From IMG/VR virus record IMGVR_UViG_3300002461_000323, positions 1 through 64,000 of that record: DNA of 64,000 nt. One strand, written 5' to 3'. The stretch comes from a virus. This document shows positions 1,690 through 62,973 of this stretch, one piece after another. The translations under genes were made by a program, and so were the position numbers. Positions within the stretch are counted from its first letter, which is position 1; every line of letters starts with the position of its first letter. The notes beneath the pieces were generated by a model that searched no databases, had not been told where the DNA came from, and was given only the letters and a program-made list of their open reading frames with translations.

Positions 1690-2020
1690 CACCCATCAAG
1701 CGATCTACGACGCTGTTCGTAGCCGGGTGAGCACCTGCGACACCCACGAGGCGATTCAGAGCGCGGTGCGAGAGGCGTTCTCCAGCGTCTACCACGCCGT
1801 GCAATCAGTTGCACAGGAGTTCTCATGCGCAGCCTACGAGCAGCAGCGTCCGAGCGTGCTCTACCGTCCGGCGATCGAGCGGGTAGGCGATACCTGGGTG
1901 GCCTCATACTCCGGAGTCCGTGTAGCCGGTGGTACTCCGGCCCTCGCCATGACCGAATTCGATAGAAAGTGGAACAGCCATGACTACCAGCAGCCGCAAG
2001 ACCTTCCCCGAAGCGGGTAA
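1682..2020 (+). CDS. hypothetical phage protein
   Basis: GTG start after GAGGG; frame of track ORF 1607-2020. Confidence 0.55.
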   Translation: MSDTHQAIYDAVRSRVSTCDTHEAIQSAVREAFSSVYHAVQSVAQEFSCAAYEQQRPSVLYRPAIERVGDTWVASYSGVRVAGGTPALAMTEFDRKWNSHDYQQPQDLPRSG

Positions 2021-2192
2021 CCACCCAGAGGCCCACAACCCGAAGATCAATCCCAAGGGCGGGATCGACTTCGACGCCCAGGACTCGGTCTTCGGAGTGG
2101 AGATCAGGGAAGACAACTCCGACTGGGCGTGGCTTCAGTGGGAACAGGAAGTGCAACCGACCGACAAGGTCATCATCAAGGACAGCAAATGA
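1980..2192 (+). CDS. hypothetical protein
   Basis: 70-aa ORF; stop overlaps next ATG. Confidence 0.5.
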   Translation: MTTSSRKTFPEAGNHPEAHNPKINPKGGIDFDAQDSVFGVEIREDNSDWAWLQWEQEVQPTDKVIIKDSK

Positions 2193-2608
2193 GTGCGACC
2201 CAGACCGACATCAAAGTGGCCCAACTTCTCCAGCCGTTGGCCGCTGGACTCGAAGACATCATCAAGGAGCAGGTTGGCAAGAAGACCTGCTTTGCGCTCA
2301 TGGTGTTCACCGACGGCCGTACCCAGTACGTGAGCAACGCCAACCGCGACGACATCACCGTGGCGTTGGAGAACCTGCTTGGCCGCTGGAAGGTCAACAA
2401 GCAGGAGGTGCAGAGCCCTCTGGCCGAGATCATGGTCGATCCGGTCGAGAAGATCGACACCCCGGTTGGCCCTCTCTTGTGGTTCGATGTGCGCGAGAAG
2501 ATCAAACTCGCCGACGACTTCCAGACGCTGCTCGACAACTACACCAAGGGCACGACCAGCCTGCAGGAGCTTGAAGATCAGGTGCTGCTTCTGCGCTCGA
2601 AGAAATAG
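2189..2608 (+). CDS. hypothetical phage protein
   Basis: ATG at 2189 with AAGGA RBS; codon usage typical of the genome. Confidence 0.65.
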   Translation: MSATQTDIKVAQLLQPLAAGLEDIIKEQVGKKTCFALMVFTDGRTQYVSNANRDDITVALENLLGRWKVNKQEVQSPLAEIMVDPVEKIDTPVGPLLWFDVREKIKLADDFQTLLDNYTKGTTSLQELEDQVLLLRSKK

Positions 2609-2630
2609 GTGAAGATTGTTCGGAGAGTTG

Positions 2631-2658
2631 TTGACAAACTAACCGACAGTGTTATAAT
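2631..2658 (+). promoter_or_regulatory. sigma70-type early promoter
   Basis: TTGACA-16-TATAAT. Confidence 0.85.
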
Positions 2659-2709
2659 TGATTCATGGCAAGCAGATGGTCTGCTGGCTTCAACCGCAAG
2701 GAGTGCATC

Positions 2710-2937: not shown

Positions 2938-2986
2938 ACTGCAACTGATTGCACAGGCTGTGGGTGGCAGCCTGTACAATGATCTG

Positions 2987-6648: not shown

Positions 6649-6894
6649 ATGAGCGACATCTTTGACCACGAGGGTGATGCCTGGGAACACGCGTTTGCCG
6701 GGGAACAGGACAGCCCGCGCAATCAATTGCACTCCAAGTGCAGGTACTGCCAGGCCGGGGCACTTCTCTGGAAGAAGCTGGACGGCAAGTGGAGGCTGCA
6801 CACAGCGGAAGGAGCAGCCCACGTGTGCAAGCCCTACCACAACCTTACGGCCGCACTGGCTAAAAGCCGAGAAATCAAGAAAGCCCTCAAATGA
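6649..6894 (+). CDS. hypothetical protein (CxxC/HxC)
   Basis: 81-aa ORF; GAGG RBS. Confidence 0.6.
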   Translation: MSDIFDHEGDAWEHAFAGEQDSPRNQLHSKCRYCQAGALLWKKLDGKWRLHTAEGAAHVCKPYHNLTAALAKSREIKKALK

Positions 6895-7682: not shown

Positions 7683-8611
7683 GCGACCTCCGCGCACTCA
7701 CCCTGGCTGCTCAAGACAGCCTGCAGGAGTCCGACCTCCCGAAGCTGAAGTTCCCGGTGCTCGTCAGCCCGAAGATCGACGGCTACCGCGTGGGCGTGCA
7801 GTCTCTCCAGCGGGCGCTCAGCCGGAGCATGAAGCCCGTGGCAAACCGCTACGTGGACAAGCTGCTCTGCCAACTGCCAGCCGGGTTCGACGGCGAACTC
7901 ACGGTCGGCCCGGCCTGGGCAGACGACGTGTTCAACACCACGGGTTCGGCCATGCGTACGGCGATCGGCGAGCCTCAGTTCGTGCTCAACACGTTCGACC
8001 GCCTGGACCTGCCCGGTCAGCCCTACGAGGAGCGGCTGCACCGAACGACGATCGCCGCGAACAGTCTGGGCTACGAGTGGCTGACGCCGCTGGAGCACTT
8101 TCGCTGCGACACCCCGGAGCAAGTGCTGGCGTGGGAGAACAAGTGGGTGGCGATGGGCTACGAGGGACTGATGGTCCGCTCACCGACTGCCCTGTATCTG
8201 GAGGGTCGATCCGGCTACCAGCAAGGCCGTGCCAAGCCCGGGGCGCTGCTCGACGGCGTGCTCATGCGGTTCAAACGCTTCTACACCAGCGAGTTCCGGG
8301 TGCTCGAAGTGCTGCAGGGCATGAAGAACAACAACGTGGCGACCAAGAACCCGCTTGGACGGACGACCCGGACGACCCACGCCGAGAACCTGATCCCGAG
8401 CGGACTCTGCGGTGGATTCGCCGCCGAGGACATTGTGACCGGCCAACGGTTCTCGGTGGCCCCCGGCAAGATGACGCACGAGCAATCGGCGGAAGTCTGG
8501 TGCAATCGATTGCAGTACATCGGCAAGATCGGCACCTACCGGTTCGACAAGAAAGGCGGGTACCTCCTGCCACGATTCCCAACCTTCCAGGGATGGCGCG
8601 ACGATCTTTGA
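7679..8611 (+). CDS. ATP-dependent DNA ligase
   Basis: Motif I SPKIDGYR, III FDGEL, IIIa NTFD, IV YEGLMVR, V RFK, VI PRFPTF. Confidence 0.9.
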   Translation: MSDLRALTLAAQDSLQESDLPKLKFPVLVSPKIDGYRVGVQSLQRALSRSMKPVANRYVDKLLCQLPAGFDGELTVGPAWADDVFNTTGSAMRTAIGEPQFVLNTFDRLDLPGQPYEERLHRTTIAANSLGYEWLTPLEHFRCDTPEQVLAWENKWVAMGYEGLMVRSPTALYLEGRSGYQQGRAKPGALLDGVLMRFKRFYTSEFRVLEVLQGMKNNNVATKNPLGRTTRTTHAENLIPSGLCGGFAAEDIVTGQRFSVAPGKMTHEQSAEVWCNRLQYIGKIGTYRFDKKGGYLLPRFPTFQGWRDDL

Positions 8612-10231: not shown

Positions 10232-10797
10232 AGACCGCTGAGAAGTACGGGGTGAAGGTCGTGGACTGCGGAAACGGCCACTTTCAGCTTGAAGGTCGGC
10301 TGCTCGTCAACTACTACCCGACCTCCAAGTACCAGACCGCGTACGTCGCTGGCACCGTCGGAGGGCCCCGGGGAGTCGATGAGTTCCGGGCGGTGATGAT
10401 GGCGCTCAAGACGCCGATCCTGGCTCCCGGCAAGGAGAAGGCCAAGCGCAAGAACGGCACCCGGCTGATCCGCTGGAAGCTCTGGCAACTCGGTTATCGC
10501 CACTGCTACGTCTGCAAGTGCGCGTTCAACAGCTTTGACGAGACGACCCTCGAACACATCATCCCGCTGGATCGGGGCGGCCTCGACCACCCGAACAACC
10601 GGACGCTTTCGCACGAGCCCTGCAATCGATTGCGGGCGAACAACATGCCCGAACTGGAGGGCGCTCAGACGCCGGTGAACGTGCTCCCGCGCATGGACGT
10701 ACTGGTGCAGGCAGCACCGCCATCGAAGGGCATGGCCGGGCTCCTGGGCCTGCCGCCGATGGGCAACCCACCCGCTGAAGGAGACCCGCCATGGTGA
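10207..10797 (+). CDS. HNH endonuclease (zinc-binding type)
   Basis: CYVC...TLEHIIPLDRGG....NNRTLSHEPCN; AAGGA RBS. Confidence 0.8.
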   Translation: MASVAKLLKTAEKYGVKVVDCGNGHFQLEGRLLVNYYPTSKYQTAYVAGTVGGPRGVDEFRAVMMALKTPILAPGKEKAKRKNGTRLIRWKLWQLGYRHCYVCKCAFNSFDETTLEHIIPLDRGGLDHPNNRTLSHEPCNRLRANNMPELEGAQTPVNVLPRMDVLVQAAPPSKGMAGLLGLPPMGNPPAEGDPPW

Positions 10798-11052: not shown

Positions 11053-13023
11053 ATGCTGATAAGTATTTTCGACAAGCTGCCCGCAGAACAGGCCAACTCC
11101 GAGCACCTCGGCGGCAAAGGCTTCGGCCTCTGGTGGATGCAGCAACAGGGCGTGAACGTGCCCCCGGCGCTCATCATCCCGACCACCCTCTGCGTGGACT
11201 ACATGACGGCCCCCAAGACGGTCATGGCCTCCCTCAAAAAGACGCTGGTCAAGAACGTCCGCGACTTCTTCATCACCCAGTTCGGGTACATGCCGCTGCT
11301 GAGCATCCGCTCTGGCGCTCGCGTGAGCATGCCCGGCATGATGGACACGATCTTGAACGTAGGCCTCGACAGCAAGAGCGAAGCCGAGTGGGTCTCCCGC
11401 CTGGGCGCTGACTGCACGCTCGACAGCTACCGCCGCCTGATCACGATGTACGGGAACGTGGTGAAGGGTGTTGACCGCCACAAGCTGGAGTTCGAGCAGT
11501 TCGACAAGACCGCCAGCGCGTACAAGCGTGCGGTCGGCACCGACTTCCCGGACTCCGACGAGCAGATTCTCGGATCGGTCGAAGCCGTGTTCCAAAGCTG
11601 GAACAACGAGCGTGCCAAGGTCTACCGGAAAATGCACAACATTCCCGAGACCTGGGGCACAGCCGTCGTCATCCAAGCGATGGTGTTCGGCAACTTCAAC
11701 GACAACAGCGGAACGGGCGTCCTGTTCACCCGCAACCCCGACAGCGGTGACAACGTGATCACCGGCGAGTTCCTGACCAACGCTCAGGGCGAGGACGTGG
11801 TAGCTGGAACGCGCACCCCGATGCCGCTCTCGAAGATGGCTGCTTGGAATCAGGTGGTGGCCGACGAACTGCTGGAGACCGTGAGCAAGCTCGAAAAAGC
11901 CAAGCGGGATGTCCAGGACGTCGAGTTCACGATCATGGACGGCAAGCTGTACATCCTCCAGACCCGGAACGCCAAGCGGAGCGCCCGTGCGGCTCTCCGG
12001 ATCGCGCTGGACATGCGCCAGGAAGGCATGATCACCGAGGCCGAGTTGTTCAAGCGCGTGGGTGCCCGTGAACTCGACTTGGCCGCTCAACCGGTGATCG
12101 ACCCCAAGTTCAAGATCGCCCCAGCCTGGACCGGCATCCCCGCGTGCTCGGGCATGGCGACCGGTGAGGTTGTGCTCAGTTCGGCTGAGGCGGTCAAGCA
12201 GGCTGCTCTCGGCAAGTCGGTGATCCTGGTCACCAAGGAGACGACCCCGGACGACATTCAGGGCATGGTAGCCGCCAAGGGCGTGGTCACGATGACCGGT
12301 GGGAGTACCAGCCACGCAGCGGTGGTCGCCAGATCGATGAACAAGGCGTGCGTCGTCGGTGTGGGTGCCGAGTACGACCAGTTCAAGGCCGGGCAGATCA
12401 TCAGCATCGACGGCGCGACCGGCCGCATCTGGATGGAGGCTGTGCCAGTGATCAAGGGCGAGAACATCGACCTCGTGACCTTCCGGAACCTGCTGGTCGG
12501 CGACCGCACTCTGCTCGTCGATCAGCCCCCGCCCTTCCCGGCCAAGAACGTGATGCTCGACCTCTCGAACTCCGTGGTCTGCTCGATCCCCGAGATCAAG
12601 AAGATCGTGGACGCGACGATCAAGCTCACGACCGGCAAGCTGACGGTTATGCTCCCGGACACGCTGGCTCCTGAGTTCCAAGAGTTCATCGGCGTGTACC
12701 TGACCGCCAAGGACCTGAACGACAAGATTGTCGAGATTCAGGACTACCTGACGCTCACGTACTCGCAGGACGCGTTCAACATCGCCGGGTGGGAGGCCGC
12801 AGGCTGGACTGCAATCGATTGCAAGTCGGTGACCAGCCTGGTTGAAATGGTGCTGCTCAAGAACGGTGGGCTTGTGACGACCATGCCACAAGGCTCGACC
12901 ACCGCCGAGAAGAAAGCGTTCGCCCGGGTGGCTCAGTGGCTGTCCGCTGAGGGCGTTTCCCTGAAAGTGCTGAACAGCGCTGAGTCGGGTGTGGCCTCGT
13001 GGACCAAGTATGTTCACGGCTGA
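11053..13023 (+). CDS. pyruvate phosphate dikinase-like protein (nucleotide-binding and phospho-His domains; no pyruvate/PEP-binding domain)
   Basis: LGGKG, SIRSGARVSMPGMMDTILNVGL, QAMVFGN, NAQGEDVVAG, QDVEFT, LQTR; swivel domain ETTPDDIQGM...GGSTSHAAVVAR; 656 aa. Confidence 0.9.
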   Translation: MLISIFDKLPAEQANSEHLGGKGFGLWWMQQQGVNVPPALIIPTTLCVDYMTAPKTVMASLKKTLVKNVRDFFITQFGYMPLLSIRSGARVSMPGMMDTILNVGLDSKSEAEWVSRLGADCTLDSYRRLITMYGNVVKGVDRHKLEFEQFDKTASAYKRAVGTDFPDSDEQILGSVEAVFQSWNNERAKVYRKMHNIPETWGTAVVIQAMVFGNFNDNSGTGVLFTRNPDSGDNVITGEFLTNAQGEDVVAGTRTPMPLSKMAAWNQVVADELLETVSKLEKAKRDVQDVEFTIMDGKLYILQTRNAKRSARAALRIALDMRQEGMITEAELFKRVGARELDLAAQPVIDPKFKIAPAWTGIPACSGMATGEVVLSSAEAVKQAALGKSVILVTKETTPDDIQGMVAAKGVVTMTGGSTSHAAVVARSMNKACVVGVGAEYDQFKAGQIISIDGATGRIWMEAVPVIKGENIDLVTFRNLLVGDRTLLVDQPPPFPAKNVMLDLSNSVVCSIPEIKKIVDATIKLTTGKLTVMLPDTLAPEFQEFIGVYLTAKDLNDKIVEIQDYLTLTYSQDAFNIAGWEAAGWTAIDCKSVTSLVEMVLLKNGGLVTTMPQGSTTAEKKAFARVAQWLSAEGVSLKVLNSAESGVASWTKYVHG

Positions 13024-14245: not shown

Positions 14246-14444
14246 ACAGGCGCAGGCGGTGCTCGTCGCCGAGAACCTGACGCCCGAAGAGTTCGAGCAC
14301 ATGGCTGCCCACTCTGCGATTACCAGCGAGTTTCCCGGCTTCAACAGGCGGTTTCACCATTGGGTTCTTGACATACGGTCCGGGGTGTGTCATAATCTCA
14401 GCATGATCGGTGGTGGACAGCCCCGCAATCAATTGCAGCAGTAG
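14223..14444 (+). CDS. hypothetical protein
   Basis: ATG 14223, frame of track ORF 14055-14444. Confidence 0.45.
   Translation: MPVTQLSKQAQAVLVAENLTPEEFEHMAAHSAITSEFPGFNRRFHHWVLDIRSGVCHNLSMIGGGQPRNQLQQ
14368..14396 (+). promoter_or_regulatory. sigma70-type promoter
   Basis: TTGACA-17-CATAAT with TG extension. Confidence 0.75.
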
Positions 14445-16950: not shown

Positions 16951-17898
16951 ATGGGGATTACAGTGAAAGACGAAACATTCCACAACCTGATGGACAAGCT
17001 GTTCGGCCCTGATCATCAGTTGACGAAAAAGCTGTCCCTGATGACCGCCTCCGGTGCGACCGCCAAGGCCGGGCTCTTCAACTTCGTGGTCACGGTGCCC
17101 GCCCACGGGACCTCGCCCGACAACGTGGTGTTCGCGTGCAAGCTGCCGACGCTCACGCTGGACATCATCAACGGCATGAACAACCACTTCGACGAGTCGA
17201 AGCAGGCGGTTTCGGCGGTTATCGCAGAAGCGTTTGCCACGTATCCAAAGTGGAGCAAGCAGACTGAGGCTGTGGCTGCCGCGATCGAGGAGCAGGCTGT
17301 GCAATCAGTTGCAGCGGCTCCGGTGTTCGACGCCTCGATGGACCCTCCGATCCCCGGTCCGACGGCGCTCAAGAAAGCTGCGGCCAAGAAGACGGTCAAG
17401 AAAGTGAACATCGACTGGGCGGCCGATCCGGTTACGCCCGCCCCCGCTGCCGACTTCCTGAAGTCCACCGGCCCGTCCGACAAGGAACTGCATGCGGCCT
17501 CCAAGGTCAACGCGACCACCGCTCACCTCGAAGCCGCAGGGTTCTCGCCGGTGAAAGTCTCGACGGTCGTCCCGCTCAAGGATGCCCGGTCGGTCGGCCA
17601 GAAGGTCAAGGGCACCAGCGCGGGCTCGAACTACCGGGTGTTCGCGGTTGGCCCGATCAACTTGGCGGTGAAGATTGCCAACGGTCAAGCGAGCGTGCGG
17701 GCCGAGCCCCAAGGTGCCTGGGCTCCGAACGCCAAGACCCACCTGGCGTCCATCGGGTTCTCCGACAACGGCGACTACATGAGCGTGCACATGACGCTCG
17801 GTGATGTTCCGCCGATGCGGGTGCTCGGGGCGGTCGCGTTCTCCCTCGACCTGAAGTTCAACCAGATTGCCACCTCCATGGAAGCCGTTTATGACTGA
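16951..17898 (+). CDS. hypothetical protein (two domains, Ala/Lys/Pro linker)
   Basis: 315 aa; GGAG RBS; KKAAAKKTVKK linker. Confidence 0.7.
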   Translation: MGITVKDETFHNLMDKLFGPDHQLTKKLSLMTASGATAKAGLFNFVVTVPAHGTSPDNVVFACKLPTLTLDIINGMNNHFDESKQAVSAVIAEAFATYPKWSKQTEAVAAAIEEQAVQSVAAAPVFDASMDPPIPGPTALKKAAAKKTVKKVNIDWAADPVTPAPAADFLKSTGPSDKELHAASKVNATTAHLEAAGFSPVKVSTVVPLKDARSVGQKVKGTSAGSNYRVFAVGPINLAVKIANGQASVRAEPQGAWAPNAKTHLASIGFSDNGDYMSVHMTLGDVPPMRVLGAVAFSLDLKFNQIATSMEAVYD

Positions 17899-19165: not shown

Positions 19166-19395
19166 GCAGCCGCTGCCCACACTGCACGAGCAGGAACTTC
19201 GAGGTCACGATCAGCCAGAAGGCGCGTGTCCAGTTCAAGTCCGATGGCAGCCACGAGGTCGAGGACGGCCCGTACGGTGATCTGGAATTCGATGACGACA
19301 GCGCGGCCGTGTGCAACCGCTGTGGTTGGGCGGGGTTCCTGCGAGACACCGAGGCCCCAGCGCAATCAATTGCACCGGAGACCAAGAATGACTGA
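19162..19395 (+). CDS. small zinc-ribbon protein
   Basis: CPHC ... CNRCGW. Confidence 0.6.
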   Translation: MSSRCPHCTSRNFEVTISQKARVQFKSDGSHEVEDGPYGDLEFDDDSAAVCNRCGWAGFLRDTEAPAQSIAPETKND

Positions 19396-24082: not shown

Positions 24083-24143
24083 CTAAACGCCTCCTGATGG
24101 CCTGTGCCGGGTCTCAAGGCGTGTACGCAATGGATTGCTGATC

Positions 24144-24497
24144 ATGGAATTCTCAAAGAAAACGCGAATCGCCTCCTCGGAGTTTCAGTTCACCCGCGTC
24201 AACGGCGTGCTGATGAGCATCGAGTTCTCCGAGGTGTACACCCGGGCACCGACGACCTACCTGCGGGCACGTCTGGAGGTCCTGCCCGAGGGTGACAACT
24301 GGAAGCTGGTGATGAAGTTCATCGACACCGACGGCGAGGTCTTCCAGCGGGAGCATCCGATCAAGGACCCCGAAGACCTGGTGACGACCATCCCACGGTT
24401 TGGCAATGAACAAGAGGCAGCAGCCTGGGGTGCGGCGTACATCGTGTTCGCAATCGCGGTCCGACACAAGGATCGGAAGGCCAGAGACTGCAATTGA
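24144..24497 (+). CDS. hypothetical protein
   Basis: ATG 24144 downstream of the promoter. Confidence 0.6.
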   Translation: MEFSKKTRIASSEFQFTRVNGVLMSIEFSEVYTRAPTTYLRARLEVLPEGDNWKLVMKFIDTDGEVFQREHPIKDPEDLVTTIPRFGNEQEAAAWGAAYIVFAIAVRHKDRKARDCN

Positions 24498-27772: not shown

Positions 27773-27815
27773 TAGCTGGTAGTAGACTCTGCAATTGATT
27801 GCACCCGGAGGACCT

Positions 27816-45614: not shown

Positions 45615-47498
45615 ATGCCGACCACCCTGTACTTCGCACAGAACACCGCGTTCCCCAAGGGACCCGGCACGTATCCCACCCTCGCTACCCAGTACGCGAA
45701 CCTCACACAGACGGGCGCGGTGACGACCGAGGGCTGCATGCTCCCGTACACCTGGAGAGCGGTTGCCAACCTCTCGGGTAACAGCCTGAACAACACGACA
45801 GCCCAGCGCTTCAGGTTCGGACGGTTCTTCAGCGCACCGTTCGCGCAGGACTACACGTGGGTGAACCCGGTGAACAGCGCGGGTGCCATCAAGTTCTTCC
45901 TCAGTGACTTCGAAGCCAACCTGAGTGCAAACCATGCAGTGCAGAGTGTGTGCATCTACGTGTGGAGACCGAGCACGGGTACACGCATAGGCTACCTCTC
46001 CCAGATCGCAGACACGCTTGCGGGCGCAAAAGAGCCGACTGCGATCAACGCGATTCAGAACACGTTGGGCGAGTACTTCACCACCGCAGGCAACATAGCG
46101 ATACTTGCAGGCGACATTCTGGTGTTCGAGCCGTTCGGCACGTTTACCCAAGCAGCGGCTACCGCGTACAACATCCGGTTCTACTACGGTGGAGTCACCG
46201 CGATCACGACCGAGAACACCGCTGCGGCAACCCCCGCCAGTAGGGTGGACTTCCCGTATGACCTGCCACTGCTGTACCCACCGAACACGGCTGTCGGCTC
46301 GATGGACACGATCGCGTTCTCGGGCACGCTCCCACCGCTGCTGGTAAGCCGGTTGAACGGTGAGGCCTCGATCATCGACGGCCAAGGTCTGGTGGACGGC
46401 TCGCGCTTGCGTGCACGCCTACAGGCCAAGGCCACGTTCTCACCTGCGAGCCTGAACACACGGGTGCTGCTCAACAGTGGACTGCACTCAATTGCAACGC
46501 TCACGAGCGCACTCCAGCAACGGCATGAACTCCAGACAGCGGCTGTGGGCACGAGTGAGAGCCTCGGGCAGTTTGAGTCCCGGGCAGTCGGTGATCTGCT
46601 CAGCCTGTACTACAGCGGGAGCGGAAGCTCTGGCAATCCCGGACTCTCCCTGGGCGGTGCTCGCGGAGCCGCGTACGGTGACCAGCAGGTGGTGTTCGAC
46701 ACCGCGATCCCCGGGCTGCAGTTCATCCAGTGCTCGAATATCCGGAGTGGGCCGATCAACCTGGTGACTGACCCGATTGCCCAGACGATCTCCTGGGTGA
46801 TCCACCCGCTGCTGATCAAGACCAGCTACTACGGTGGGAACGTGGACACGGTGTTCGTCGGAGACCTATCCAACGGATTCCTGGTGTTCCGGGTGACCGA
46901 CAAGAACGCCGTACCCGCTCTGCAATTGATTGCAAACGCGGTCAACCTGGAGAACACGCTGTTCGCCAACCCGAGCTTGAGCGTGCTCGCATCCGGGGAG
47001 ACCGTGTACCGGGCGCTGTTCCTGATGAACTACAGCGCTCAGGACATCGAACTGCCGGTGCTCAGCCTCGACCACAGTTCGATCGAGACCATCAGCATCG
47101 GCACCGAGTACGTGAGTAACCTGAACCTCACCCAGTACCAGCGCAAGATCGACGTCCATCGTCGGGGTACGGACGTCACCGGCAGGGGCGACAACCTGTT
47201 GATCGCTCCGATCCTGCAGATCAGCCTGAACGTCAGTCCGCTGGGCAATCCAACGATGTACTCGACGATTGGCCGGGCGCAGGAAACCGACGGTATTTCC
47301 ACGCAGTTGCCGACCACGCTCGTCGATCAGTTCGATTCCACGCTGCTTCTCTCGGAGGTACAATTTGGGCCTACGCTCAGTTGGCCGAGGATCAAGGCTG
47401 GCAAGGGAGTGAGCTTCTGGGTCCGCAAGGTCCAGCCTCCAGGGGTGGTGCCACCGGTCACCCAGAAGCTAGGTTTCAAAGTCACCGGCACCTTCTAA
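45615..47498 (+). CDS. multi-domain tail/fibre protein
   Basis: 627 aa; C-terminal half paralogous to 44085 (NTLF...GETVYRALFLMN...SFWVRK). Confidence 0.65.
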   Translation: MPTTLYFAQNTAFPKGPGTYPTLATQYANLTQTGAVTTEGCMLPYTWRAVANLSGNSLNNTTAQRFRFGRFFSAPFAQDYTWVNPVNSAGAIKFFLSDFEANLSANHAVQSVCIYVWRPSTGTRIGYLSQIADTLAGAKEPTAINAIQNTLGEYFTTAGNIAILAGDILVFEPFGTFTQAAATAYNIRFYYGGVTAITTENTAAATPASRVDFPYDLPLLYPPNTAVGSMDTIAFSGTLPPLLVSRLNGEASIIDGQGLVDGSRLRARLQAKATFSPASLNTRVLLNSGLHSIATLTSALQQRHELQTAAVGTSESLGQFESRAVGDLLSLYYSGSGSSGNPGLSLGGARGAAYGDQQVVFDTAIPGLQFIQCSNIRSGPINLVTDPIAQTISWVIHPLLIKTSYYGGNVDTVFVGDLSNGFLVFRVTDKNAVPALQLIANAVNLENTLFANPSLSVLASGETVYRALFLMNYSAQDIELPVLSLDHSSIETISIGTEYVSNLNLTQYQRKIDVHRRGTDVTGRGDNLLIAPILQISLNVSPLGNPTMYSTIGRAQETDGISTQLPTTLVDQFDSTLLLSEVQFGPTLSWPRIKAGKGVSFWVRKVQPPGVVPPVTQKLGFKVTGTF

Positions 47499-47939: not shown

Positions 47940-50900
47940 ATGGCGCTGTTCTCCGACCTGCCAAGGATTTGGTCCCGTGAGGAGATAAACACCAGCACGC
48001 AGTACATCGTCGAGTGGACTGACGGTGGGCCGTACGTGGTGTTCAGAAACCCACGCCTGGTTCTTGATCTCGACACCGCGACCTTCGGAGCCCGGGTAGA
48101 GTCCAGGGATGTGTTCATCAACGGGGCGATCTCGCAGACGCTCAGAGCCGGTGCCAACAGCTACGGTGAGGACTTCGGTGACGCCGGGGTGGTCAGTAGC
48201 GGGCTGCCCGCTGTGTACTTCGACGCTGGCAGTGGCCGCCTGCCCTCTTACGCAGAGTTCACCGAGTGGTTCGGAGTGTTCTCGGAAGACCGTTCGTTCT
48301 CCCAGAGCTTCACGTACCTGCGGGGTGCCAACCAAGTGCTGTACACCCGGGCGAACACCACGGTAGGCGGCTACCCGGGCAACACGTTGGAGAGCACGGG
48401 CATCCTGCACGGAAGCGCGATCTTCCAGACCGACCCGCAGTGCATCGCGTTCTCGCCGACCAACGTCTGGGTGTTCACGCACAAGGACACGGTGAGCCCG
48501 GCTGTGAACTCCGAGGTCTACCTGGATGTCTGGAACGGTACGACCGTGACCTCGACTCAGCGGCTTGATCTGGACGGCCCTATCCTGCACTACCAGATCA
48601 TCCGTGGGACCACCGGGCAGGTGTACCTGATGTACGTGAAGTACGGGACCGGCCCCGGATTCGGTACGGGGTACATCCGGGCGATCAACGAGAGTACCCG
48701 GGCGCTGTCCGCCATCCTCTGGTCCGGGCCAGTGGGTACCAGCGGCTTCCCTGACCTCGCGGGCTACCAAGACAACATTTGCTGCAACAAGGTCTACACG
48801 TTCGGGACCACGAACTACCTGGTGAACCTCTGGAACAGTGTGATGACTGTTCACACGTACCAGACGAGCACGCCTAACACGCTGACCCTTCTGTGTACGG
48901 GAGAGTTCGCTAACACCACGGCGTACATGGGCAAGAGCGCGGGTGTCGAATACGACCCGGTGTCTGGTGACGCCCACCTCGTGCACTGGCAGATCAAGGA
49001 CTACTTCGCTACGGGCGGGGAGTTCTCCAACCAGTTGACGCTTGTACGGCAGTCGCACAATATCAAGCTCAGCACGTTCACGCTCGTCACCGCCAACGCA
49101 CAGGAGATTCAGGGCTTCGTCGGCATTCCATCGAACCCGAACTTCCAGATTCTGGACGAGGGCCAAATCCAGTGCTACATCCCGAGCAACGTCGGTGCGG
49201 ATCGCGATGCGTTCTTGCACTTCTACTGCACTGAGCGCTCTGGGGGGCAGGCGGTACTGCTCGGCTTCTACGTGCGGCTCAAGAACTGGAACAATCCCGG
49301 GCCAATCGATGGCGCGGTGGACGCCACGATCACTGCTGTCGGGGCGACTGTTCTCGGGGCCGTCGATTACGGGGTGGGCGTGGAGATCATGCCCGAAGTC
49401 GGGGTGACTGCTGCGGGTGTGCGCCCACGAGAGTTCCAGATGAACACCCGCTGGGCACTCCAGGCGAACGCGAACGTCGATGGTGAGGTGCTGATCGACA
49501 TCCCGGTGGAGGTGGAGGTCAGCGGAGCCACCGGCGATCTCGAAGACTCCGCGCTTGAGATCAACCCGGATTTAGAGGTCAGCATCGGGAGCGAGATCGT
49601 CCGCTTGCGGGATGGCGAGGTCGTGATCGCACTCGATCTGCTGGTGGACATCCAGGCCGAGTCCAGCCCTCCGATGGTCGAGGTGTTCCTGAACACCACC
49701 TGGCTGTACACGGGCATGGGGTTCATGGCCGAGTTCCAGAACTACATGAACGAAGAGCGGGCGACCGTCTTCGGTCTGCCCCCGTACAAGATCATGGGCA
49801 CGGACGCGATCTCCCGCAAGTTCCTGGAACTGGAAGACATCGCCAGCCGCCACAGCCGTCAGATGGCGTTCTACCGGGTGTTCGCTCACGCCAACTCCGT
49901 GTTCGAACCCGGCTGGCAGACGATCGAGCAGCGGGTGGGCTACCTGACGAACGCCGGTGCCGAGAACATCTTGTTCTTCGCGAACACCGAGTACGGCTCT
50001 GGGCTGACCCCGCTGCCCACCGCGTACGAGACCTACCTGTCGTGGAAGAACAGCCCGCCCCACTACCAGAACATGACGTACAACTGGGGTGACGACAACG
50101 ACAAGGTGTATTCGGTGTTCGGCTACGAGTTCGGCCTGAGTATGTCGAACGTGGACTTCTCCGGATTCTCCGGGCCGCCCGTGGACGACACCTGGGAATT
50201 CTTCTACGCGACAAACAACTTTCTGGTTTTGAAGGAGACCCTTATGGAAACCTCTGTAGCTCAATACTGGGCGTTCCGAGGGCTGGACGGGCTTTTCCTG
50301 CCCCAGTTCTGGAACACCAACTACTACACGCCGATCAAAGTCGAGGCCGATTACCCGTACGCACTCGCGATCTCCACTGAGTTGGATGTGCCGTTGAACT
50401 CCGTGATCTCGGTCGAGCACGAGCACCCATGGACATCCCAGGTGCTGTCGGAGATCGTCCACAACTGGGCGCTTGCGAGCGTGAAGGTGCAGGCTGAGGC
50501 CTCGTACCTGTACGACCTGCAGCGGCTGCCGGTCTCCAGGGAGATCGAACACGCGTACTCGGTGAAGGTCTCCCTGGAGATCGAGTTCCCGTACGCCGAC
50601 TCGTTGAAGGCCCGGTCAGAGATCGAGATCATTCTCAGCAGCCTGCAATCAGTTGCACGAGAGCAGAGCATGAGCCTGCCGCTCGGCCCACGTGTGCGTG
50701 TGGAACGTGACAGCCCTTACGAACTGGAGCTTCGTCCCCAGGTGGCGGCTGAGCAGACGATCCTGTACGCGCTGGAGAGCGTGAGCATCGGCAGTGCCCA
50801 GCTTGAAGTGCAATTGATTGCACGGGGCATCAGCACCCGGATTCAGGATGGCCTGATCAGCGCGGACGCCAGCGGCTCGGGCTTCAAGTTCGACTGCCGG

Positions 50901-53025: not shown

Positions 53026-53255
53026 GCGCGATCTCAGACCTGCGCAAGCTCGTCCAGCCCAAGGGCCAGGCGTACGAGATCGGTGAGGTCGTGGTCGTCG
53101 AGGCCACGCGGGTGATCGTGCGCGTGGGAAGCCGTGCAATCAATTGCAGCACGCTCGTACCCGTGATTGCCGGTGACAGCGTGCGCGTACAAGGCCTGCT
53201 GATCGTCAGCAAACAGCAGAACATCGCGAACTCCGTGCCGGTCTTCCGGGTCTGA
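53022..53255 (+). CDS. small tail-tip protein
   Basis: ATGA coupling; beta-rich, 77 aa. Confidence 0.55.
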   Translation: MSAISDLRKLVQPKGQAYEIGEVVVVEATRVIVRVGSRAINCSTLVPVIAGDSVRVQGLLIVSKQQNIANSVPVFRV

Positions 53256-55933: not shown

Positions 55934-58533
55934 TGGCTGACTACCACGTAGACCCGGCCACCGGGGTGGACACGAACACCGGGGCATCCTGGGCTCAGGC
56001 CTGGAAGACGCCGAACGGCCTGCGCGTGAACTCTGTGGTCATGGTCGCGGGCGACCGCCTGAAGTTCGCGAAGTCGGTGATGACGACCGGCAACACCGGG
56101 GATACCGTGCAGTTCCCGACGTTCACAGGCCAAGGCATCACGTTCTTCGGCAGTGCCGCCTGGACGTACATTTCTCGGCGCTCGACCACGGCCACGAACT
56201 TCCCGAGCCCACGGTACTTCAACGGCACCTGGCAGACATCGCTGACCTGGCAGTTCTTCACCGCGAACTTCTACCCGTTCGAAGGCAGGTCAACTACCGG
56301 GCTGTTCAACCCCCCGAGCCGTCGCCTGGCCTACCAGTTCGCTTCGAACCTGAACTTCAACGGTCTCCGCACGGTCTGGATGTGGTTCCGGGTGAGCGTG
56401 CCGTACACGGGAGCCGGGGACATCGACGTACCCCCTGGCACGTTCTCTATCCTGCTGTGTTCGGACGGCGCGGGACTGACCCCGTTGCTGACGATCCCGG
56501 TGGACGTGTGGATCAAGAACACCGGAGAGTGGGCGTGCGTGCGCTACGAGCATCCCGCTGACTTCACGACCCTCGGAGCGGTGAACTCGGTCGCCGTTCA
56601 CCGGACCGCCCAGACGTTGAACCGGGACAACACGGGGTTCGGCCTCACCTGGAGCCCGCTGCTGTTCGGGCGCACGGCCATCCAAGACCACTCCCTAGAC
56701 TACGTGTTCAAGGTGCCAGACGTTCGTCCTAGCCCGGCCATCCAACCGGACGCCGTGCTGGTCAACCCGTTCTGCCTGGCTGAGATAATGTACCCGGTGC
56801 ACGGGATGACCGGATCGAACATCGGGTACACGATCCCCACCCAGTACAGCGCAAGCAACACGTTGACGCTCGCCGACCGGTACACGGCCTTCCCAGTGCC
56901 TCCGTCGGGTCAGTACGGTCTCGGGTACGTGGGGGCCGCCAACTGGCCGTTCGCAGCCCCGACATCCACCGGCGCTTTCGACCTGAACGGCAGCGCGGGC
57001 GGCACCCTCGCTCAGCCGGTGACGCTGGAAGGTGGTTGGAACACCGCGACCGACGTCGTTGACGGGGCCACCGTGTACACCGGGCGCACACCCCAGGAGT
57101 ACGGGCACACGGCTGCGCTGTTCGACCTGCAGAACGCTGAGCACGTGGTGATCAAGAACATCGGTGCGATCTACGGGTTTGGACGGTTGATCGACCGCGC
57201 CAGGACGATCACGCTCGACCGCTGCCACCTGCCGTACTCTCACAGGGGCGGGGTGAACACGCTGCCGCCGTTGGGCACACCCAGCACTGCAATCAATTGC
57301 ACGATGAAGAACATGATGGTCCCGAACTACACGTTCGAGTACATCGGGGTGATCGGCAACCTCACGCTTCAGAACTTCTTTGCCAACACGTTCGAAGACC
57401 GCAGCCCTCTGCAGTACGTGGAGGTCGAGAACCTGGTGATGGACGCCGCGTACGTGGGCCGCCGCAACAACACGGACGTCTACACCTGGCACTTCTCTGT
57501 CCGTGGTGATGCCGAGCTTGCGAACACCACGATCATCTACCCCCCGAGGATCGTCAATCGGTCCAACTTCGGGCGCACGATGACCATCCGCAACCTCTGG
57601 ACATGGAGTCAGTACGTGTCTCAGGGCTACCGGCTGGTGCCGACACTCCCGGACAGCCGTTGGGACACGATCGTCTACCGTAACAACGGCAGCTACAACG
57701 GCGATTGGGCACCCGGCAGCACGACCCTGCCTGCCTCGTGTGACCGCAGGATCGAGTTCAGAGACAACACGAACAGCATCCTCGTGAACGATACGTTGCT
57801 GGGCAGCCAGTTCGCGAACACCGAGGCCGCGCAGTTGGTGGGCTCAGTCAAGACGCTGACAGCCGGGTTCTACTCGTTCTCCCTCGCCCCGAACAATAGC
57901 AGCACCGGCACCACCCCAGGCCTGCGGGCTTACTCGTATGCCTACCGGTTTCAGCTTGGCGGGAGCAATTTCTCCGATCGCTGGGCTCCTCTGGCGTCTA
58001 CCGAGCCATCGATCCCACAGGATGTGGACTTCGTGTTCGTGGGCTCAAACGCAGCGGCTATACTGCCCCGCAGTCCTGCCATCTTCTTCAGGTCGGCCCA
58101 AGACTACTTCCTGCTCGTCAGCTACTCTTCTGGCTACCCCGGCTCTGCGGTGGCGACCGCCTACGTTGAGGGCGGGAAGAACTACAAGTTCAAGCTCGGA
58201 TGCCAGTACCGCAACCTATCGATACAGAACAATGCCAGCGGTGCGCCTCCCTGGTACAACGTGTTCTCCGACAACTTTTCGTGCACTGAGCCGGTGGAGC
58301 ACTTCAAGATCGTGATCCGGGGTCCGGGCGTGGTCGCTGGCGTGGACCTGGTGATCCCGTACTTGGACGGCCCGTACAATGAGTTCTCGAACACCGCCCG
58401 CAACGACTGGCGTGATCTGGAGTTCCCGTTCTCGACAATCGCTGAGGGAGAGGTCACAATCTACCTGTATGCGACGTTGAGCAACAACAGCATCGCCGTG
58501 ATCATCGACAAGGCAGAAGTGGAGCTTGCATGA
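55933..58533 (+). CDS. tail fibre/receptor-binding protein 2 (paralog of 53258)
   Basis: 866 aa; YHVDPATGVDTNTGASWAQAWKT; shared internal GT...P....GG.N..T..VDG.T block. Confidence 0.7.
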   Translation: MADYHVDPATGVDTNTGASWAQAWKTPNGLRVNSVVMVAGDRLKFAKSVMTTGNTGDTVQFPTFTGQGITFFGSAAWTYISRRSTTATNFPSPRYFNGTWQTSLTWQFFTANFYPFEGRSTTGLFNPPSRRLAYQFASNLNFNGLRTVWMWFRVSVPYTGAGDIDVPPGTFSILLCSDGAGLTPLLTIPVDVWIKNTGEWACVRYEHPADFTTLGAVNSVAVHRTAQTLNRDNTGFGLTWSPLLFGRTAIQDHSLDYVFKVPDVRPSPAIQPDAVLVNPFCLAEIMYPVHGMTGSNIGYTIPTQYSASNTLTLADRYTAFPVPPSGQYGLGYVGAANWPFAAPTSTGAFDLNGSAGGTLAQPVTLEGGWNTATDVVDGATVYTGRTPQEYGHTAALFDLQNAEHVVIKNIGAIYGFGRLIDRARTITLDRCHLPYSHRGGVNTLPPLGTPSTAINCTMKNMMVPNYTFEYIGVIGNLTLQNFFANTFEDRSPLQYVEVENLVMDAAYVGRRNNTDVYTWHFSVRGDAELANTTIIYPPRIVNRSNFGRTMTIRNLWTWSQYVSQGYRLVPTLPDSRWDTIVYRNNGSYNGDWAPGSTTLPASCDRRIEFRDNTNSILVNDTLLGSQFANTEAAQLVGSVKTLTAGFYSFSLAPNNSSTGTTPGLRAYSYAYRFQLGGSNFSDRWAPLASTEPSIPQDVDFVFVGSNAAAILPRSPAIFFRSAQDYFLLVSYSSGYPGSAVATAYVEGGKNYKFKLGCQYRNLSIQNNASGAPPWYNVFSDNFSCTEPVEHFKIVIRGPGVVAGVDLVIPYLDGPYNEFSNTARNDWRDLEFPFSTIAEGEVTIYLYATLSNNSIAVIIDKAEVELA

Positions 58534-59595: not shown

Positions 59596-59606
59596 CCTGC
59601 AATTGA

Positions 59607-59635
59607 TTGCACGGTGGACAGCCGGGAGGTAGACT
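59607..59635 (+). promoter_or_regulatory. putative promoter overlapping the 14-bp palindrome
   Basis: TTGCAC-17-TAGACT in the intergenic gap. Confidence 0.55.
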
Positions 59636-59927: not shown

Positions 59928-59958
59928 ACTCTCACCCATCATCCACTAGGAGCACTCC

Positions 59959-60429
59959 ATGGCCGCCCTCTCGAACTTCCTCGAAAACAAACTGATCGAC
60001 TGGCTCCTGCGTGCGCAGGCAATCGGCATCACCGGCGCGTCTGCAGCCGCTGGCACCGGTCCCGTGAACGTCTGGGTCGGGCTGTTCACCGCCAACCCCA
60101 CGGACGCTGCTGGTGGTACGGAAGTCGCTGGCGGTTCGTACGCTCGCGTTCAGGTGACGTCTGCTCTCACCGCATGGGCGGGTACCCAGGCTGCTGCCTC
60201 GACCGTGGCATCCTCGGGCACTGGTGGCACGACCTCGAACAACAACCCGATCACCTTCCCAGCGCCAACCGCAAACTGGGGTGTGATCACCGGCTTCGGC
60301 CTGTTCGACGCAGTCACGGGCGGAAACCTGCTGATCTACGGCGCGATCACCCCGAACAAGACGGTGAACAACGGTGACGCGGCTCCTGCGTTCTCGGCTG
60401 CCCAGTTGAGCATCCAACTCGACGACTAA
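59959..60429 (+). CDS. fibre-associated small structural protein
   Basis: MAALSNFLENKLID...GTEVAGGSYARV...FPAPTANWG...FDAVTGGN; AGGAG RBS. Confidence 0.75.
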   Translation: MAALSNFLENKLIDWLLRAQAIGITGASAAAGTGPVNVWVGLFTANPTDAAGGTEVAGGSYARVQVTSALTAWAGTQAAASTVASSGTGGTTSNNNPITFPAPTANWGVITGFGLFDAVTGGNLLIYGAITPNKTVNNGDAAPAFSAAQLSIQLDD

Positions 60430-60501
60430 CCGGCTTGAGTCCCGTCCAGGCTTGTCTTGGCGGGCTCAGCCCGTGTTGAACAAGAACTGAACGGGACTCC
60501 C

Positions 60502-61317
60502 ATGGCAATCACCACACGCGACCAACTGATCAACGCTCTGGCGAACAACACGAGCCGGGTCGTCTGGGACAAGGCCTCGCTCGCCAACGCGGCGGCAGGC
60601 TTCGTCTTCAGTCTCTGGCGGGCGACCGGTACCCCTGGTCAAGGTGCGATCCCGACCACCGCTGCAACGTGCGTCAACGGCCTGCTCGGGTCCATTGGCT
60701 TCACCAACCAGACGCTACCGGTCACCAGCTATTACGCCTGGCAGACGGTCACTGGCGGTAACGCGACAGCCAACGTCGAAATCCACGACCGGCTTGCTCA
60801 CATGGGCGGTCTGAGCGGAATTGTCACCACCGCACAGGGCGCACTCAGCCTGATCACCAACGATCCCGGGGCTGATCGCCGTGGTGACGCCAACTATTCG
60901 GGCATTCAGTGGTGGCTGGAGTGGTACACGGATACCGGCGCAACCGCGTCCAACGCAACCGTGAACGTGACCTACGATGACGCGAGCACTGGTAACCTGG
61001 CGGTCATCGCCGTCGGCGGCACTGTGCGTGCTGGCCGGATGCTCCCGCTTATCTCGGCAGTCTCTGGCCGGTTCATTCGCTCGGTCAACAGCGTGACCCT
61101 GAGCGCGTCCACCGGCACCGCAGGCAACTTCGGCATCACCGCCACCCGTCCGCGTACGGCTGTCAGCACGTTGCTGGCGAACAAGACCGAGAACTACGAT
61201 TGGGCTCAGCTTGGCCTGCCTGAGATTCCGAACAACTCCTGCTTGCAGATGGTCATGCTGTGCTCGACCACGAGCACGGGCACGGTGCGTGGACAGGGCA
61301 AGATCGCACACGGGTAA
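60502..61317 (+). CDS. putative virion structural protein
   Basis: 271 aa, Ala/Thr/Gly-rich, in the fibre operon. Confidence 0.6.
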   Translation: MAITTRDQLINALANNTSRVVWDKASLANAAAGFVFSLWRATGTPGQGAIPTTAATCVNGLLGSIGFTNQTLPVTSYYAWQTVTGGNATANVEIHDRLAHMGGLSGIVTTAQGALSLITNDPGADRRGDANYSGIQWWLEWYTDTGATASNATVNVTYDDASTGNLAVIAVGGTVRAGRMLPLISAVSGRFIRSVNSVTLSASTGTAGNFGITATRPRTAVSTLLANKTENYDWAQLGLPEIPNNSCLQMVMLCSTTSTGTVRGQGKIAHG

Positions 61318-61320
61318 GGT

Positions 61321-62973
61321 ATGAGCGTAGAGAACGCCAACCGAGACCTACCTCGCGGCGTTCGCGGGGGCTCGGTCGCCTGGGACCTGGAGCAGTCCGG
61401 GACCTTACTGCAGGACGACTACTTTGCGTCGGTTCCTGCGGGTAACGACACGGCCCTCGTAGGCTCTGCCGTTGCCACGGCCACGACCACGGCCAGCCTG
61501 ACCACCGGCATCCGCCTGGGCAGTGCGGTAGCTGCTGTGGCGGCATCCAGCGGGGCGCTGACGACCAACATCCGCCTGCAATCAAGTGCATCGGCAACCT
61601 CAAGCGCATCCGCAGCCTTGAGCGTGGGCGTGGGGTTCACCGCCGCAGCGACCGCGAGTGCGACCGCCACAGGTAACCTGACGACCGCGATCTCCATGCA
61701 GGCGGCTGCTCAGGCCGTGGCGTCGGTCAACGCGGTGCTGCGAGTGGGTGTGGCGTTCACCGGGTCTGCCGTGGCGATCGCGAGCACCACCGCGAACTTG
61801 ACCGTGGGCGTGGTCTTCAACGGCTCGGCTGTGGCCTCGTCCACGACGACAGCCAGCCTGACCACCCAGATCAGCTTCGTCGGCAGTGCACAGGCTACGG
61901 CGACAACCACCGCTGAACTGACGGTCGCACCAGGCTTCAGTGCAGCCGCAACGGCGATTGCAAGCGCTATTGCCACGTTGGGCACGCAGATTCGTCTGCA
62001 AGCCAGCGTAGCCGCGACCGTGGTCTCCGGGGCTGTTCTGGCAACCCAAGTACGGCTGGTGACCTCGGCCCTCGGCGTTGCCAGCGCTTCCGGATCACTG
62101 ACGACCCAGGTACGGCTTGCATCTGCTGCGTTGGCAACTGCCACCAGCACTGCAGGCCTTCTTACTGCCATTCGATTGGTGGGCTCTGGCTCGGCAGCCT
62201 CGCTGTCCACTGGCTCGTTGCAGACCGCCATCAGCCTCGTTGGCTCTGCCCAGGCGCGGGCAACCGTCATCGCGTCGAATCTCCAGGTCGGCGAGAGCAT
62301 GCTCGCGTCGGTACAGGCGAAGGCGACCGCCTCCGGCAACCTAACAACCATCGTGCGTCTGGTGGGTTCAGCCCCGGCGATCTCCAGTGCATCGGGAGTG
62401 CTGCGGGTCGGAGCGCTCTTCACCTCCACGGCCACGGCCACTGCAGCCGCTACGGCCAACCTCACGGTCGCCACACGCTTCAACGGCACCGCCAGCGCGA
62501 CCGCCAGTGCCTCCGGCAACCTGACGACCTCTGTCCGGCTGGTGGGAGCGGCCACGGTCACCGCACTGGCATCCGGCGTAATCGCAGGTGCTGCTGCTGA
62601 ACTGCAATCGATTGCACAGGCTCGGGCAACCGCCACGGGTGTGCTCACGTCCCCAGTGGACCTGGCTGGACAGGCGGCAGCAACCTCGGTCGCCAGCGGT
62701 AGCCTGCAGACCTCCATCCAGTTGGCCGGTGTCGCGACCGCGACTGCCCGTGCTCAGGGCAGCCTGCCAGCGCCGTTCGTACCCAACCCTGATCGCATCT
62801 GGGTTATTCCGGCTGAAGATCGGACGCTCGAAATCTTGGCCGAGGACCGGACTACCGAAGTCCCGTATGAGGACCGTGTGATCGAAATCCCGTACGAACT
62901 GCGGGTTCTCGTGGTCCCGTACGAGGTGCGTACGCTGGTCGTTCAGGCGGACAAGGGCGGTCTGATCGTCTGA
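61321..62973 (+). CDS. Ala/Thr/Ser-rich repeat (filament/fibre scaffold-like) protein
   Basis: About 20-aa repeats like GSAVATATTTASLTTGIRL over most of its length; C-terminal 9-aa repeats xRxxxxxxE. Confidence 0.7.
   Translation: MSVENANRDLPRGVRGGSVAWDLEQSGTLLQDDYFASVPAGNDTALVGSAVATATTTASLTTGIRLGSAVAAVAASSGALTTNIRLQSSASATSSASAALSVGVGFTAAATASATATGNLTTAISMQAAAQAVASVNAVLRVGVAFTGSAVAIASTTANLTVGVVFNGSAVASSTTTASLTTQISFVGSAQATATTTAELTVAPGFSAAATAIASAIATLGTQIRLQASVAATVVSGAVLATQVRLVTSALGVASASGSLTTQVRLASAALATATSTAGLLTAIRLVGSGSAASLSTGSLQTAISLVGSAQARATVIASNLQVGESMLASVQAKATASGNLTTIVRLVGSAPAISSASGVLRVGALFTSTATATAAATANLTVATRFNGTASATASASGNLTTSVRLVGAATVTALASGVIAGAAAELQSIAQARATATGVLTSPVDLAGQAAATSVASGSLQTSIQLAGVATATARAQGSLPAPFVPNPDRIWVIPAEDRTLEILAEDRTTEVPYEDRVIEIPYELRVLVVPYEVRTLVVQADKGGLIV

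Follow-up and report, generated by a model that had tools for sequence, protein, structure and literature searches.

The first 64,000 nucleotides of the virus genome in IMG/VR record IMGVR_UViG_3300002461_000323, the window analysed here, are studded with a palindrome, the 14-bp dyad TGCAA-N4-TTGCA, which occurs in this phage as TGCAAT-YR-ATTGCA at roughly one copy per 2 kb. Combining exact word counts, codon-preserving shuffles, comparison with related phages and structure prediction, we conclude with good confidence that this dyad is the word recognised by a DNA-binding protein that has two-fold symmetry and is encoded by the phage. As its reader we put forward a protein of 278 amino acids (aa) encoded outside the window, at genome positions 86588-87424 (L133:2588-3424), a proposal for and against which the evidence is about evenly balanced. 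The phage is uncultured, and its genome is a single contig of 105,951 bp, 100% complete according to CheckV, with nearly all of its genes on the + strand and a measured guanine-plus-cytosine (GC) content of 61%, slightly below the 63% or so that had been estimated by eye in the original prediction, a reading of the window from its letters alone.

Exact counting gives 21 perfect cores in the window (GCAATNNATTGC; GCAAT-NN-ATTGC), in number and place those reported by the original prediction, against a mean of 0.01 and a maximum of 1 in dinucleotide shuffles. Genome-wide there are 35 such cores, 31 exact copies of TGCAA-N4-TTGCA and, once a single arm mismatch is allowed, 48 sites, and this word is the most over-represented 10- to 12-mer of the genome. 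Its centre reads T-[C/T]-[G/A]-[A/G], the central step being CG, CA or TG, with GG at a single site; CA and TG centres are balanced in number, and one-sided changes of the outer bases (CGCAAT...ATTGCA, ...ATTGCG) are common. About three quarters of the sites fall within open reading frames (ORFs), where, as had been noticed in the window, they are read in all three frames, frame 1 (QSIA/QLIA) being the commonest; the remainder lie at gene junctions, frequently right behind a stop codon.

Two features of the sites indicate selection for the word itself and for where it stands. When codons are shuffled synonymously over the whole genome, preserving every protein and the codon usage, the 35 cores drop to 8.2 +/- 0.7, of which 6 are intergenic copies left unshuffled; because the shuffles destroy the coding copies, selection on the sites is supported as acting at the level of DNA, not protein, in line with what had been proposed from the window. 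The sites are also spaced more evenly than random placement would give: the coefficient of variation (CV) of the gaps is 0.49 genome-wide, whereas random placement gives 0.97 and none of 5000 simulations came as low; the widest gap measures 5.4 kb versus a random median of 9.4 kb; and 92% of the genome is no more than 1.5 kb away from a site versus 75% at random (0 of 1000 simulations as high). Density is equal across the early, structural and replication regions, at 0.42-0.50 per kb, and asymmetric centres occur in both orientations (14 versus 12), with no orientation bias in this genome. The even spacing and the two-way centres that had been described for the window thus extend to the complete chromosome.

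Is the word a property of the phage or of its host? Among the matches listed (at least 120 stretches, from many phyla), bacterial genomes nearly always hold the exact 14-mer once per contig; as these are single chance matches, the word is no host repeat or uptake signal. Many viral contigs, by comparison, carry several copies, and most of these have capsid or replication genes 27-60% identical to those of this phage, at GC contents of 35-68%. Among cultured phages, counted as exact TGCAA-N4-TTGCA unless stated, the word is found 31 times in Stenotrophomonas phage Summit (centre TCAA), 27 times in Rhodobacter phage RcTiptonus (TCGA), 17 times in Rhizobium phage TM16 (CATA), 47 times in Rhizobium phage L338C (as TGCAAC-NN-GTTGCA), 33 times in Agrobacterium phage JP1 (as TGCAAACGTTTGCA), 15 times in Pseudomonas phage BHU-15 (as TGCAA-RCGY-TTGCA) and 16 times in Aeromonas phage HJ05 (as TGCAAC-YR-GTTGCA). 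Rhodobacter phage RcZahn has 9 exact copies and 26 at one mismatch (TCAA, TTAA), Stenotrophomonas phages DLP_5 and DLP_3 have 28 and 25 by the narrower core GCAATYRATTGC (centre mostly TCAA), Vibrio phages PJ32 and SIO-2 have a few copies, and the more distant capsid relatives Bacillus BMBtp14, Clostridium P21, Streptomyces Yaboi and Circinus have 0 or 1. A megablast of 20 kb of the phage against the phage collection returned no matches. In our literature searches the word, its 12-mer and its variants were not found in a phage context, the lattice was not described, and the combination of a ParB-like protein with the palindrome likewise gave nothing relevant.

The word therefore tracks the phage clade over hosts of several classes and differs between phages of a single host genus (TM16 versus L338C, both on Rhizobium), which makes a phage-encoded reader the best inference, as the site-plus-protein system of the original prediction had implied. 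Two relatives go a step further, with TGACATTAATGTCA in L343 (IMGVR_UViG_3300010392_000345; copies at 5054, 9854, 11578, 16428 and 20636) and the asymmetric TGAAATTAATTGCA in L346 (copies at 6839, 9901, 11465 and 14151), and are natural specificity variants of the word. A host protein such as a LacI/PurR-type regulator or a universal nucleoid protein could in principle read the sites, as the word fits TGNAANCGNTTNCA, the JP1 word contains GCAAACGTTTGC, and both may resemble operators of the LacI/PurR type; operators of the LacI family have a central CG step. Given hosts that span Gamma- and Alphaproteobacteria and uncultured low-GC lineages, different words on one host genus, essentially one copy in nearly all bacterial genomes among the matches listed and a word that changes with phage lineage (L343, L346), a host reader is very improbable. 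The LacI-type helix-turn-helix (HTH; PF00356) is absent from the phage genome, and its presence would anyway have made a case for a phage reader.

Individual sites come and go. When the phage is compared with Summit (~45% protein identity), 4 of the 9 coding sites that could be tested stand at the homologous codon, and against more distant phages 0 of 11 do, so individual sites turn over as density and spacing persist. The most position-conserved coding site that we saw lies in the RuvC-like gene, at genome 85303 (peptide ...LQLIA...), at the same codon in this phage, Summit and ~19 IMG/VR relatives (L313-L336). The central step forms a series from CG through CA/TG to TA, RcTiptonus having nearly all CG, this phage a mixture and Summit all CA/TG, with TA included in PJ32 and RcZahn; this would fit deamination of methylated CpG, or a plain tolerance of any YR step.

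These comparisons also bear on whether the palindrome acts as duplex DNA at all. A hairpin in single-stranded DNA or RNA (5-bp stem, 4-nt loop), for example a priming or processing signal at Okazaki-like spacing, would account for conserved arms around four central bases that vary by lineage, for a ~2 kb spacing similar to the length of lagging-strand fragments, and for a motif that travels with a conserved module of DnaB, primase, single-stranded DNA-binding protein (SSB) and helicase. It is nevertheless improbable: even very distant phages keep the sequence of the arms, the stem showing no compensatory changes and outer changes on one side being common; asymmetric centres occur in both orientations; a centre restricted to YR steps, as in this phage, is easier to reconcile with a kinked duplex than with a loop; several copies precede promoters and are therefore not part of those transcripts; and a 5-bp stem is weak.

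A neighbourhood beyond the window deserves mention here. After the TerL gene, at genome 91356-95229 (L133:7356-11229), lie genes for a PAPS-reductase-domain protein, a GNAT acetyltransferase and three consecutive ParB_N-domain proteins, possibly an IbrA/IbrB-like DNA-modification or packaging accessory module. The word could be the target of a DNA-modification or nicking enzyme, such as the PAPS-reductase/ParB pair of this cluster, and the series of centres would resemble the footprint of deaminated methyl-CpG. We regard this as improbable in the extreme, since among the compared genomes the PAPS-reductase gene is common only to this phage and L338C, the centre variants have no single restriction or methylation sub-site in common, and the enrichment, even spacing and promoter-side placement of the sites would be left unexplained.

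If the reader is encoded by the phage, which protein is it? Only 15 genes are common to nine motif-bearing genomes: those for the polymerase, portal, protease, capsid, AAA ATPase, DnaB, primase, gp32-like SSB, helicase, RecA-like protein, exonuclease, RuvC, TerL, a 136-aa protein and the 278-aa protein (PHROG 17202). The last of these has no Pfam match and belongs to a large family of metagenomic homologues annotated as hypothetical; its profile is found in 6 of 6 further motif-bearing records and in 0 of 4 motif-free records. Its AlphaFold model (predicted local distance difference test, pLDDT, 78) has a disordered stretch at residues 1-34 and helical domains at 42-172 and 197-265, and a full structural scan with VIA-align aligns it to ParB-parS (6s6h, Z 7.7), Spo0J (1vz0, 7.0), KorB-operator (1r71, 6.6), KorB (8qa8, 6.3), SopB (4.9) and VirB (4.4), with DUF3102, DUF1016_N and HTH_ParB as weak look-alikes in the ESM Atlas. 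As a homodimer it is predicted with an interface score (ipSAE) of 0.71 versus 0.00 for the best control, the self-contacts being two-fold symmetric, the runs agreeing in at least 60% of contacts and the partner pLDDT reaching at least 72; the mark applied was passed by 20 of 30 proteins solved as pairs and by 1 of 23 solved as single chains. The predicted C-terminal symmetric dimer would fit a symmetric word. ParB_N-only genes adjoin the candidate gene in BHU-15, L071 and L127 and the terminase gene elsewhere, a neighbourhood that is one of four lines pointing to the 278-aa protein as reader.

The placement of sites around the candidate gene adds to this. Eight of the nine genomes have a site no more than 200 nt upstream of it (distances in the nine: 71, 56, 75, -14, 982, 22, -4, 49 and 131 nt), directly behind the RuvC stop codon and 5-8 bp ahead of a sigma-70 -35 box; at one site per 2-4 kb, the chance of such placement is ~5-10% per genome. 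No other core gene approaches this except the prohead-protease block, with a site at most 200 nt upstream in 6 of 9 genomes. The placement is kept even where the word has changed, L343 having TGACGTTAATGTCA 8 bp before the -35 box of its candidate homologue and L346 having TGAAATTAATTGCA there. The lineage's own palindrome precedes the promoter of the 278-aa gene even when that palindrome has been altered; the ordinary reading is that the candidate is a regulator with its own operator.

Several observations weigh against the 278-aa protein. The fourteen other core genes show the same co-distribution with the motif, which is confounded by phylogeny. The best VIA-align match of the model is Raf1 (Z 9.6), ahead of all ParB-superfamily domains, and Foldseek gave no match at E <= 0.001; the Z values for ParB/KorB-like folds are moderate and such as helical domains reach easily, so that the fold would be a lead and no proof of membership. 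The N-terminal CTPase domain of ParB (GxxRxxA box) is absent from the protein, ParB_N occurring only on the separate proteins at 93642-95229; longer fused forms were looked for and not found, which is weak evidence. In one subclade (19 of 40 IMG/VR loci) the candidate gene has its own promoter and no upstream site, the nearest being a conserved site inside RuvC. The half-site of L343 has switched (TGACAT) but its putative recognition helices, RKAMYLINIY and GWTKLKD, have not changed, so that the switched bases would have to be read by other residues, or the sites by another protein. The 178-kb relative G001 (the record of L008) carries three adjacent paralogues of the candidate family (113283-116421) together with sparse GCAAGTAATTGC sites, ~1 per 25 kb, and may use several words. 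A negative control within the clade was not found; L008/L009 and L349 carry the candidate family with sparse or no detected sites. The covariation of word and helices speaks neither for nor against the candidate: 'GWTK' occurs only with T-class words (9 of 9) and 'GWSK' with words of any class, a pattern with an uncorrected, hand-calculated Fisher value of ~0.005 that ignores phylogeny.

Could another phage protein read the sites? Eligible are the three ParB_N proteins (93642-95229, the first also with an HTH), a MerR-like protein (81969-82388), a TerS-like HTH protein (88685-89536), a DnaD/O-like initiator (73842-74939) and the core 136-aa protein (82373-82783). All three of the first group carry a ParB_N domain, and P0001 aligns to ParB and Noc through the N-terminal domain into the HTH (PHROG 2159 at 6e-60); the adjacency of ParB_N genes to the candidate or terminase gene counts for them as well, and the unchanged helices of L343 leave room for such a reader. 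We consider this group unlikely to include the reader, since PJ32 and BHU-15 have no protein with both ParB_N and HTH, RcZahn and JP1 lack the MerR-like one, only 4 of 8 genomes encode the TerS-like and O-like proteins, and no conserved upstream site is found at any of these genes. The 136-aa protein is a core gene product with a fold that is not recognised, and it shows no sign of DNA binding.

Two other proteins were considered as readers and set aside. The protein at 13080-13487 (Zn-ribbon and winged helix), the first choice of the original prediction, has no homologues beyond Summit and a handful of near relatives from metagenomes and is absent from seven other motif-bearing genomes, a distribution too narrow for the role; it has no Pfam, PHROG or PDB match. 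The core protein at 79750-80586 (L132:15750-16586; PHROG 17226), between the primase and helicase genes, has no Pfam family, and its invariant H...C...CPxC pattern and acidic, glycine-rich tail ending in D/N-x-L resemble an SSB of the T4 gp32 type. It carries an H/C/CxxC zinc finger besides the acidic tail and is no reader of specific sequences.

How would the 278-aa protein, if it is the reader, use its sites? Strong promoters of the sigma-70 type (TTGACAAA, ~15 nt, TAtAAT) occur 20 times in the genome in nearly identical form, always on the + strand and only at 1-24 kb and 66-102 kb; those in the window are at 2631, 4987, 7248, 10996, 15011, 16890, 19985 and 24053, and the rest lie at genome 66629-102142. 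Four of the 20, none of them in the window, are preceded by the palindrome, with 11, 10, 5 and 7 bp between its end and the -35 box (66979, 69928, 86504 and 99784), and ~44 other sites lie away from promoters. The candidate dimer would dock at each word; at a few sigma-70 promoters, including its own, the word would probably be a promoter-proximal operator through which the protein represses or tunes transcription directly, and the ~90% of sites in genes and at junctions might serve as loading or anchoring points for this protein over the full length of the chromosome. Such a lattice could bring about long-range silencing, compaction, or marking or shielding of phage DNA. A role in plasmid-like partition is unlikely, because the 100%-complete genome has no match to a ParA-type ATPase (PF13614) and none to a tyrosine integrase. 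None of the 20 promoters falls in the structural block at 24-64 kb, and the late genes must therefore be expressed in some other way. The palindromes themselves do not look like late promoters: a TACAAT follows 21 and 19 nt downstream only at the sites at 2940 and 24489, not at other sites.

The sites of the window can now be placed one by one. In the early part, they lie at 1800..1813 (TGCAATCAGTTGCA, arms exact, within ORF 1607-2020), 2940..2953 (TGCAACTGATTGCA, right behind the stop of ORF 2665-2937), 6718..6731 (CGCAATCAATTGCA, within ORF 6649-6894), 8501..8514 (TGCAATCGATTGCA, perfect, within the ligase-like ORF 7622-8611), 10621..10634 (TGCAATCGATTGCG, within ORF 10165-10797) and 12810..12823 (perfect, within the dikinase-like ORF 10825-13023). 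An intergenic CGCAATCAATTGCA at 14424..14437 lies ~20-30 nt downstream of a promoter-like TTGACA/CATAAT pair, and further copies stand at 17300..17313 (TGCAATCAGTTGCA, within ORF 16951-17898) and 19361..19374 (CGCAATCAATTGCA, within ORF 19162-19395). A doubtful copy at 24126..24139 (CGCAATGGATTGCT) has an intact core, a GG centre and deviating outer bases on both sides.

In the structural block, TGCAATTGATTGCG at 24489..24502 occupies the junction ahead of the portal gene (24498), and a perfect-arm site at 26649..26662 lies within the MuF-like ORF 26294-27772 at a position shared with Summit. Another with perfect arms, at 27790..27803, is intergenic at the head of the prohead-protease block, 488 nt upstream of the protease gene; a perfect site at 31118..31131 stands directly behind a terminator-like hairpin after the capsid gene, and one at 32739..32752 (within ORF 32681-33130) again shares its position with Summit. 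The tape-measure ORF 35604-39170 contains a perfect site at 37570..37583. Perfect arms also mark the sites at 35145..35158 (within ORF 34934-35440), 42587..42600 (ORF 42154-44073), 46921..46934 (ORF 45615-47498), 50809..50822 (ORF 47940-51854), 53135..53148 (ORF 53022-53255), 57288..57301 (ORF 55933-58533) and 59598..59611 (at the junction of genes 59595/59607). ORF 45615-47498 holds a second copy at 46483..46496 (TGCACTCAATTGCA) and ORF 47940-51854 a second at 50644..50657 (TGCAATCAGTTGCA); ORF 61321-62973 has TGCAATCAAGTGCA at 61577..61590 and a perfect site at 62603..62616.

Besides the 21 cores, six of these window sites (1800, 2940, 17300, 46483, 50644 and 61577) have at most one arm mismatch, where at least 12 one-mismatch copies had been reported. 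Two further copies are weak: CGCAATTGGTTGCA at 21061..21074, within the DNA polymerase ORF 20482-23670, in which the core as first defined is broken, and the still weaker CGCACTCAATTGCA at 38568..38581, with two mismatches, in the tape-measure ORF. Look-alikes at 5030, 7290, 11038 and 15054 belong to a different motif, GCAATGGAGTGCA, which also occurs at genome 66701, 96053 and 99867, always on the + strand and at ribosome-binding regions just downstream of promoters; it is a separate translation-start word, despite having TGCAAT/GTGCA in common with the palindrome. Summit has 16 copies of the similar CAATGGAGTG, both strands pooled.

As to the remaining gene content, the window carries a cluster at 10825-16092 with the pyruvate-phosphate-dikinase-like gene (732 aa), a dual-specificity phosphatase (14484-15014) and a 344-aa protein (PHROG 20946), conserved in Summit, RcZahn, TM16 and PJ32, and no tRNA genes were found at genome 64-106 kb. 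Activated-carbon metagenomes from 2015 and drinking-water metagenomes from another study, of 2024, contain DNA near-identical to window positions 24498-31059, and the phage therefore persists in water-treatment habitats. The sequencing runs with phage DNA are these activated-carbon and drinking-water metagenomes, and no RNA sequencing runs with the phage are listed.

A wider reading of the clade can be offered tentatively, and we hold it to be possible at best: a large clade of phages of 80-180 kb may share a chromosome-wide 'address code', in which a CTPase-less ParB-fold HTH protein, perhaps one half of a split ParB with the ParB_N proteins as the other, is docked every 2-4 kb and coats, compacts or marks the genome as self, with few promoters regulated directly and a word that drifts through TGCAAT, TGCAAA, TGCAAC and TGACAT. 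If true, this would add to phage biology a chromatin-like layer that has not been described. Many cultured phages, with hosts in Stenotrophomonas, Vibrio, Pseudomonas, Aeromonas, Rhizobium, Agrobacterium and Rhodobacter, would then have protein docking sites across their genomes that have gone unreported and that take precedence over the choice of codons in essential genes; some of these phages are under consideration for therapy or biocontrol. It would also provide a natural case of a ParB/KorB-like fold operating without the CTPase clamp domain, and would show the joint drift of a DNA word and its reader across a virus clade. With a named candidate and cultured relatives that carry 25-47 sites, the question of the reader is directly testable.

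How does this arrangement compare with known systems? The original prediction had pointed to the stoperators of mycobacteriophage L5 and to bacterial sites such as those of Noc and ParB. In L5, many copies of one repressor site (read by gp71) are spread over the phage genome, also within transcription units. The stoperators, however, are asymmetric, oriented with transcription and bound by the immunity repressor of a temperate phage, whereas the word here is symmetric, shows no preferred orientation (14 versus 12) and belongs to a genome without an integrase; the analogy fails on these points, and dispersed sites of the KorB, ParB and Noc type hold best. ParB-parS, Noc-NBS and SopB-sopC share with our system palindromes of 14-16 bp read by dimeric HTH proteins of one superfamily (the reader here being a candidate with a putative HTH), and the sites of Noc are likewise scattered over the chromosome. 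The parS, NBS and sopC palindromes often have a central CG. Unlike in these systems, there is no ParA-type ATPase here, the sites are not clustered as in a centromere, and membership of the candidate in the ParB family is not established by sequence.

Among phages, a counterpart is the 17-bp dyad repeat TGTTCGG-N3-CCGAACA of Cluster O mycobacteriophages, with 34 copies in Corndog and with reader and function left unexplained (PMC4351075). In both cases a word with dyad symmetry is repeated over 30 times along a phage genome, in part within genes; word and phage group are unrelated, and the passages of that report consulted here mention no even spacing, candidate reader or clade-wide code (PMC4351075). 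The nearest parallel is KorB with its operator OB on the IncP plasmid RK2, where a short palindrome is likewise scattered around a mobile genome, with a few copies placed 4-10 bp ahead of promoters (5-11 bp here) and the others distal or in genes (PMC11790492). KorB acts over ~1.5 kb (PMC11790492), the distance within which 92% of the phage genome lies from a site, and our candidate is predicted to share a ParB/KorB-like helical DNA-binding domain and a dimeric state. The differences are that the phage has ~48 evenly spaced sites, mostly in coding sequence, that the candidate has no CTPase N-terminal domain, with ParB_N only on separate small proteins, that no KorA-like or ParA/IncC partner was found in the phage genome, and that the element is a phage without an integrase. 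The system is classed here as dispersed operators of a ParB/KorB-like regulator, unusual in a candidate reader without a CTPase domain, in a lattice spacing that runs inside coding sequence and in a code that drifts across the whole clade.

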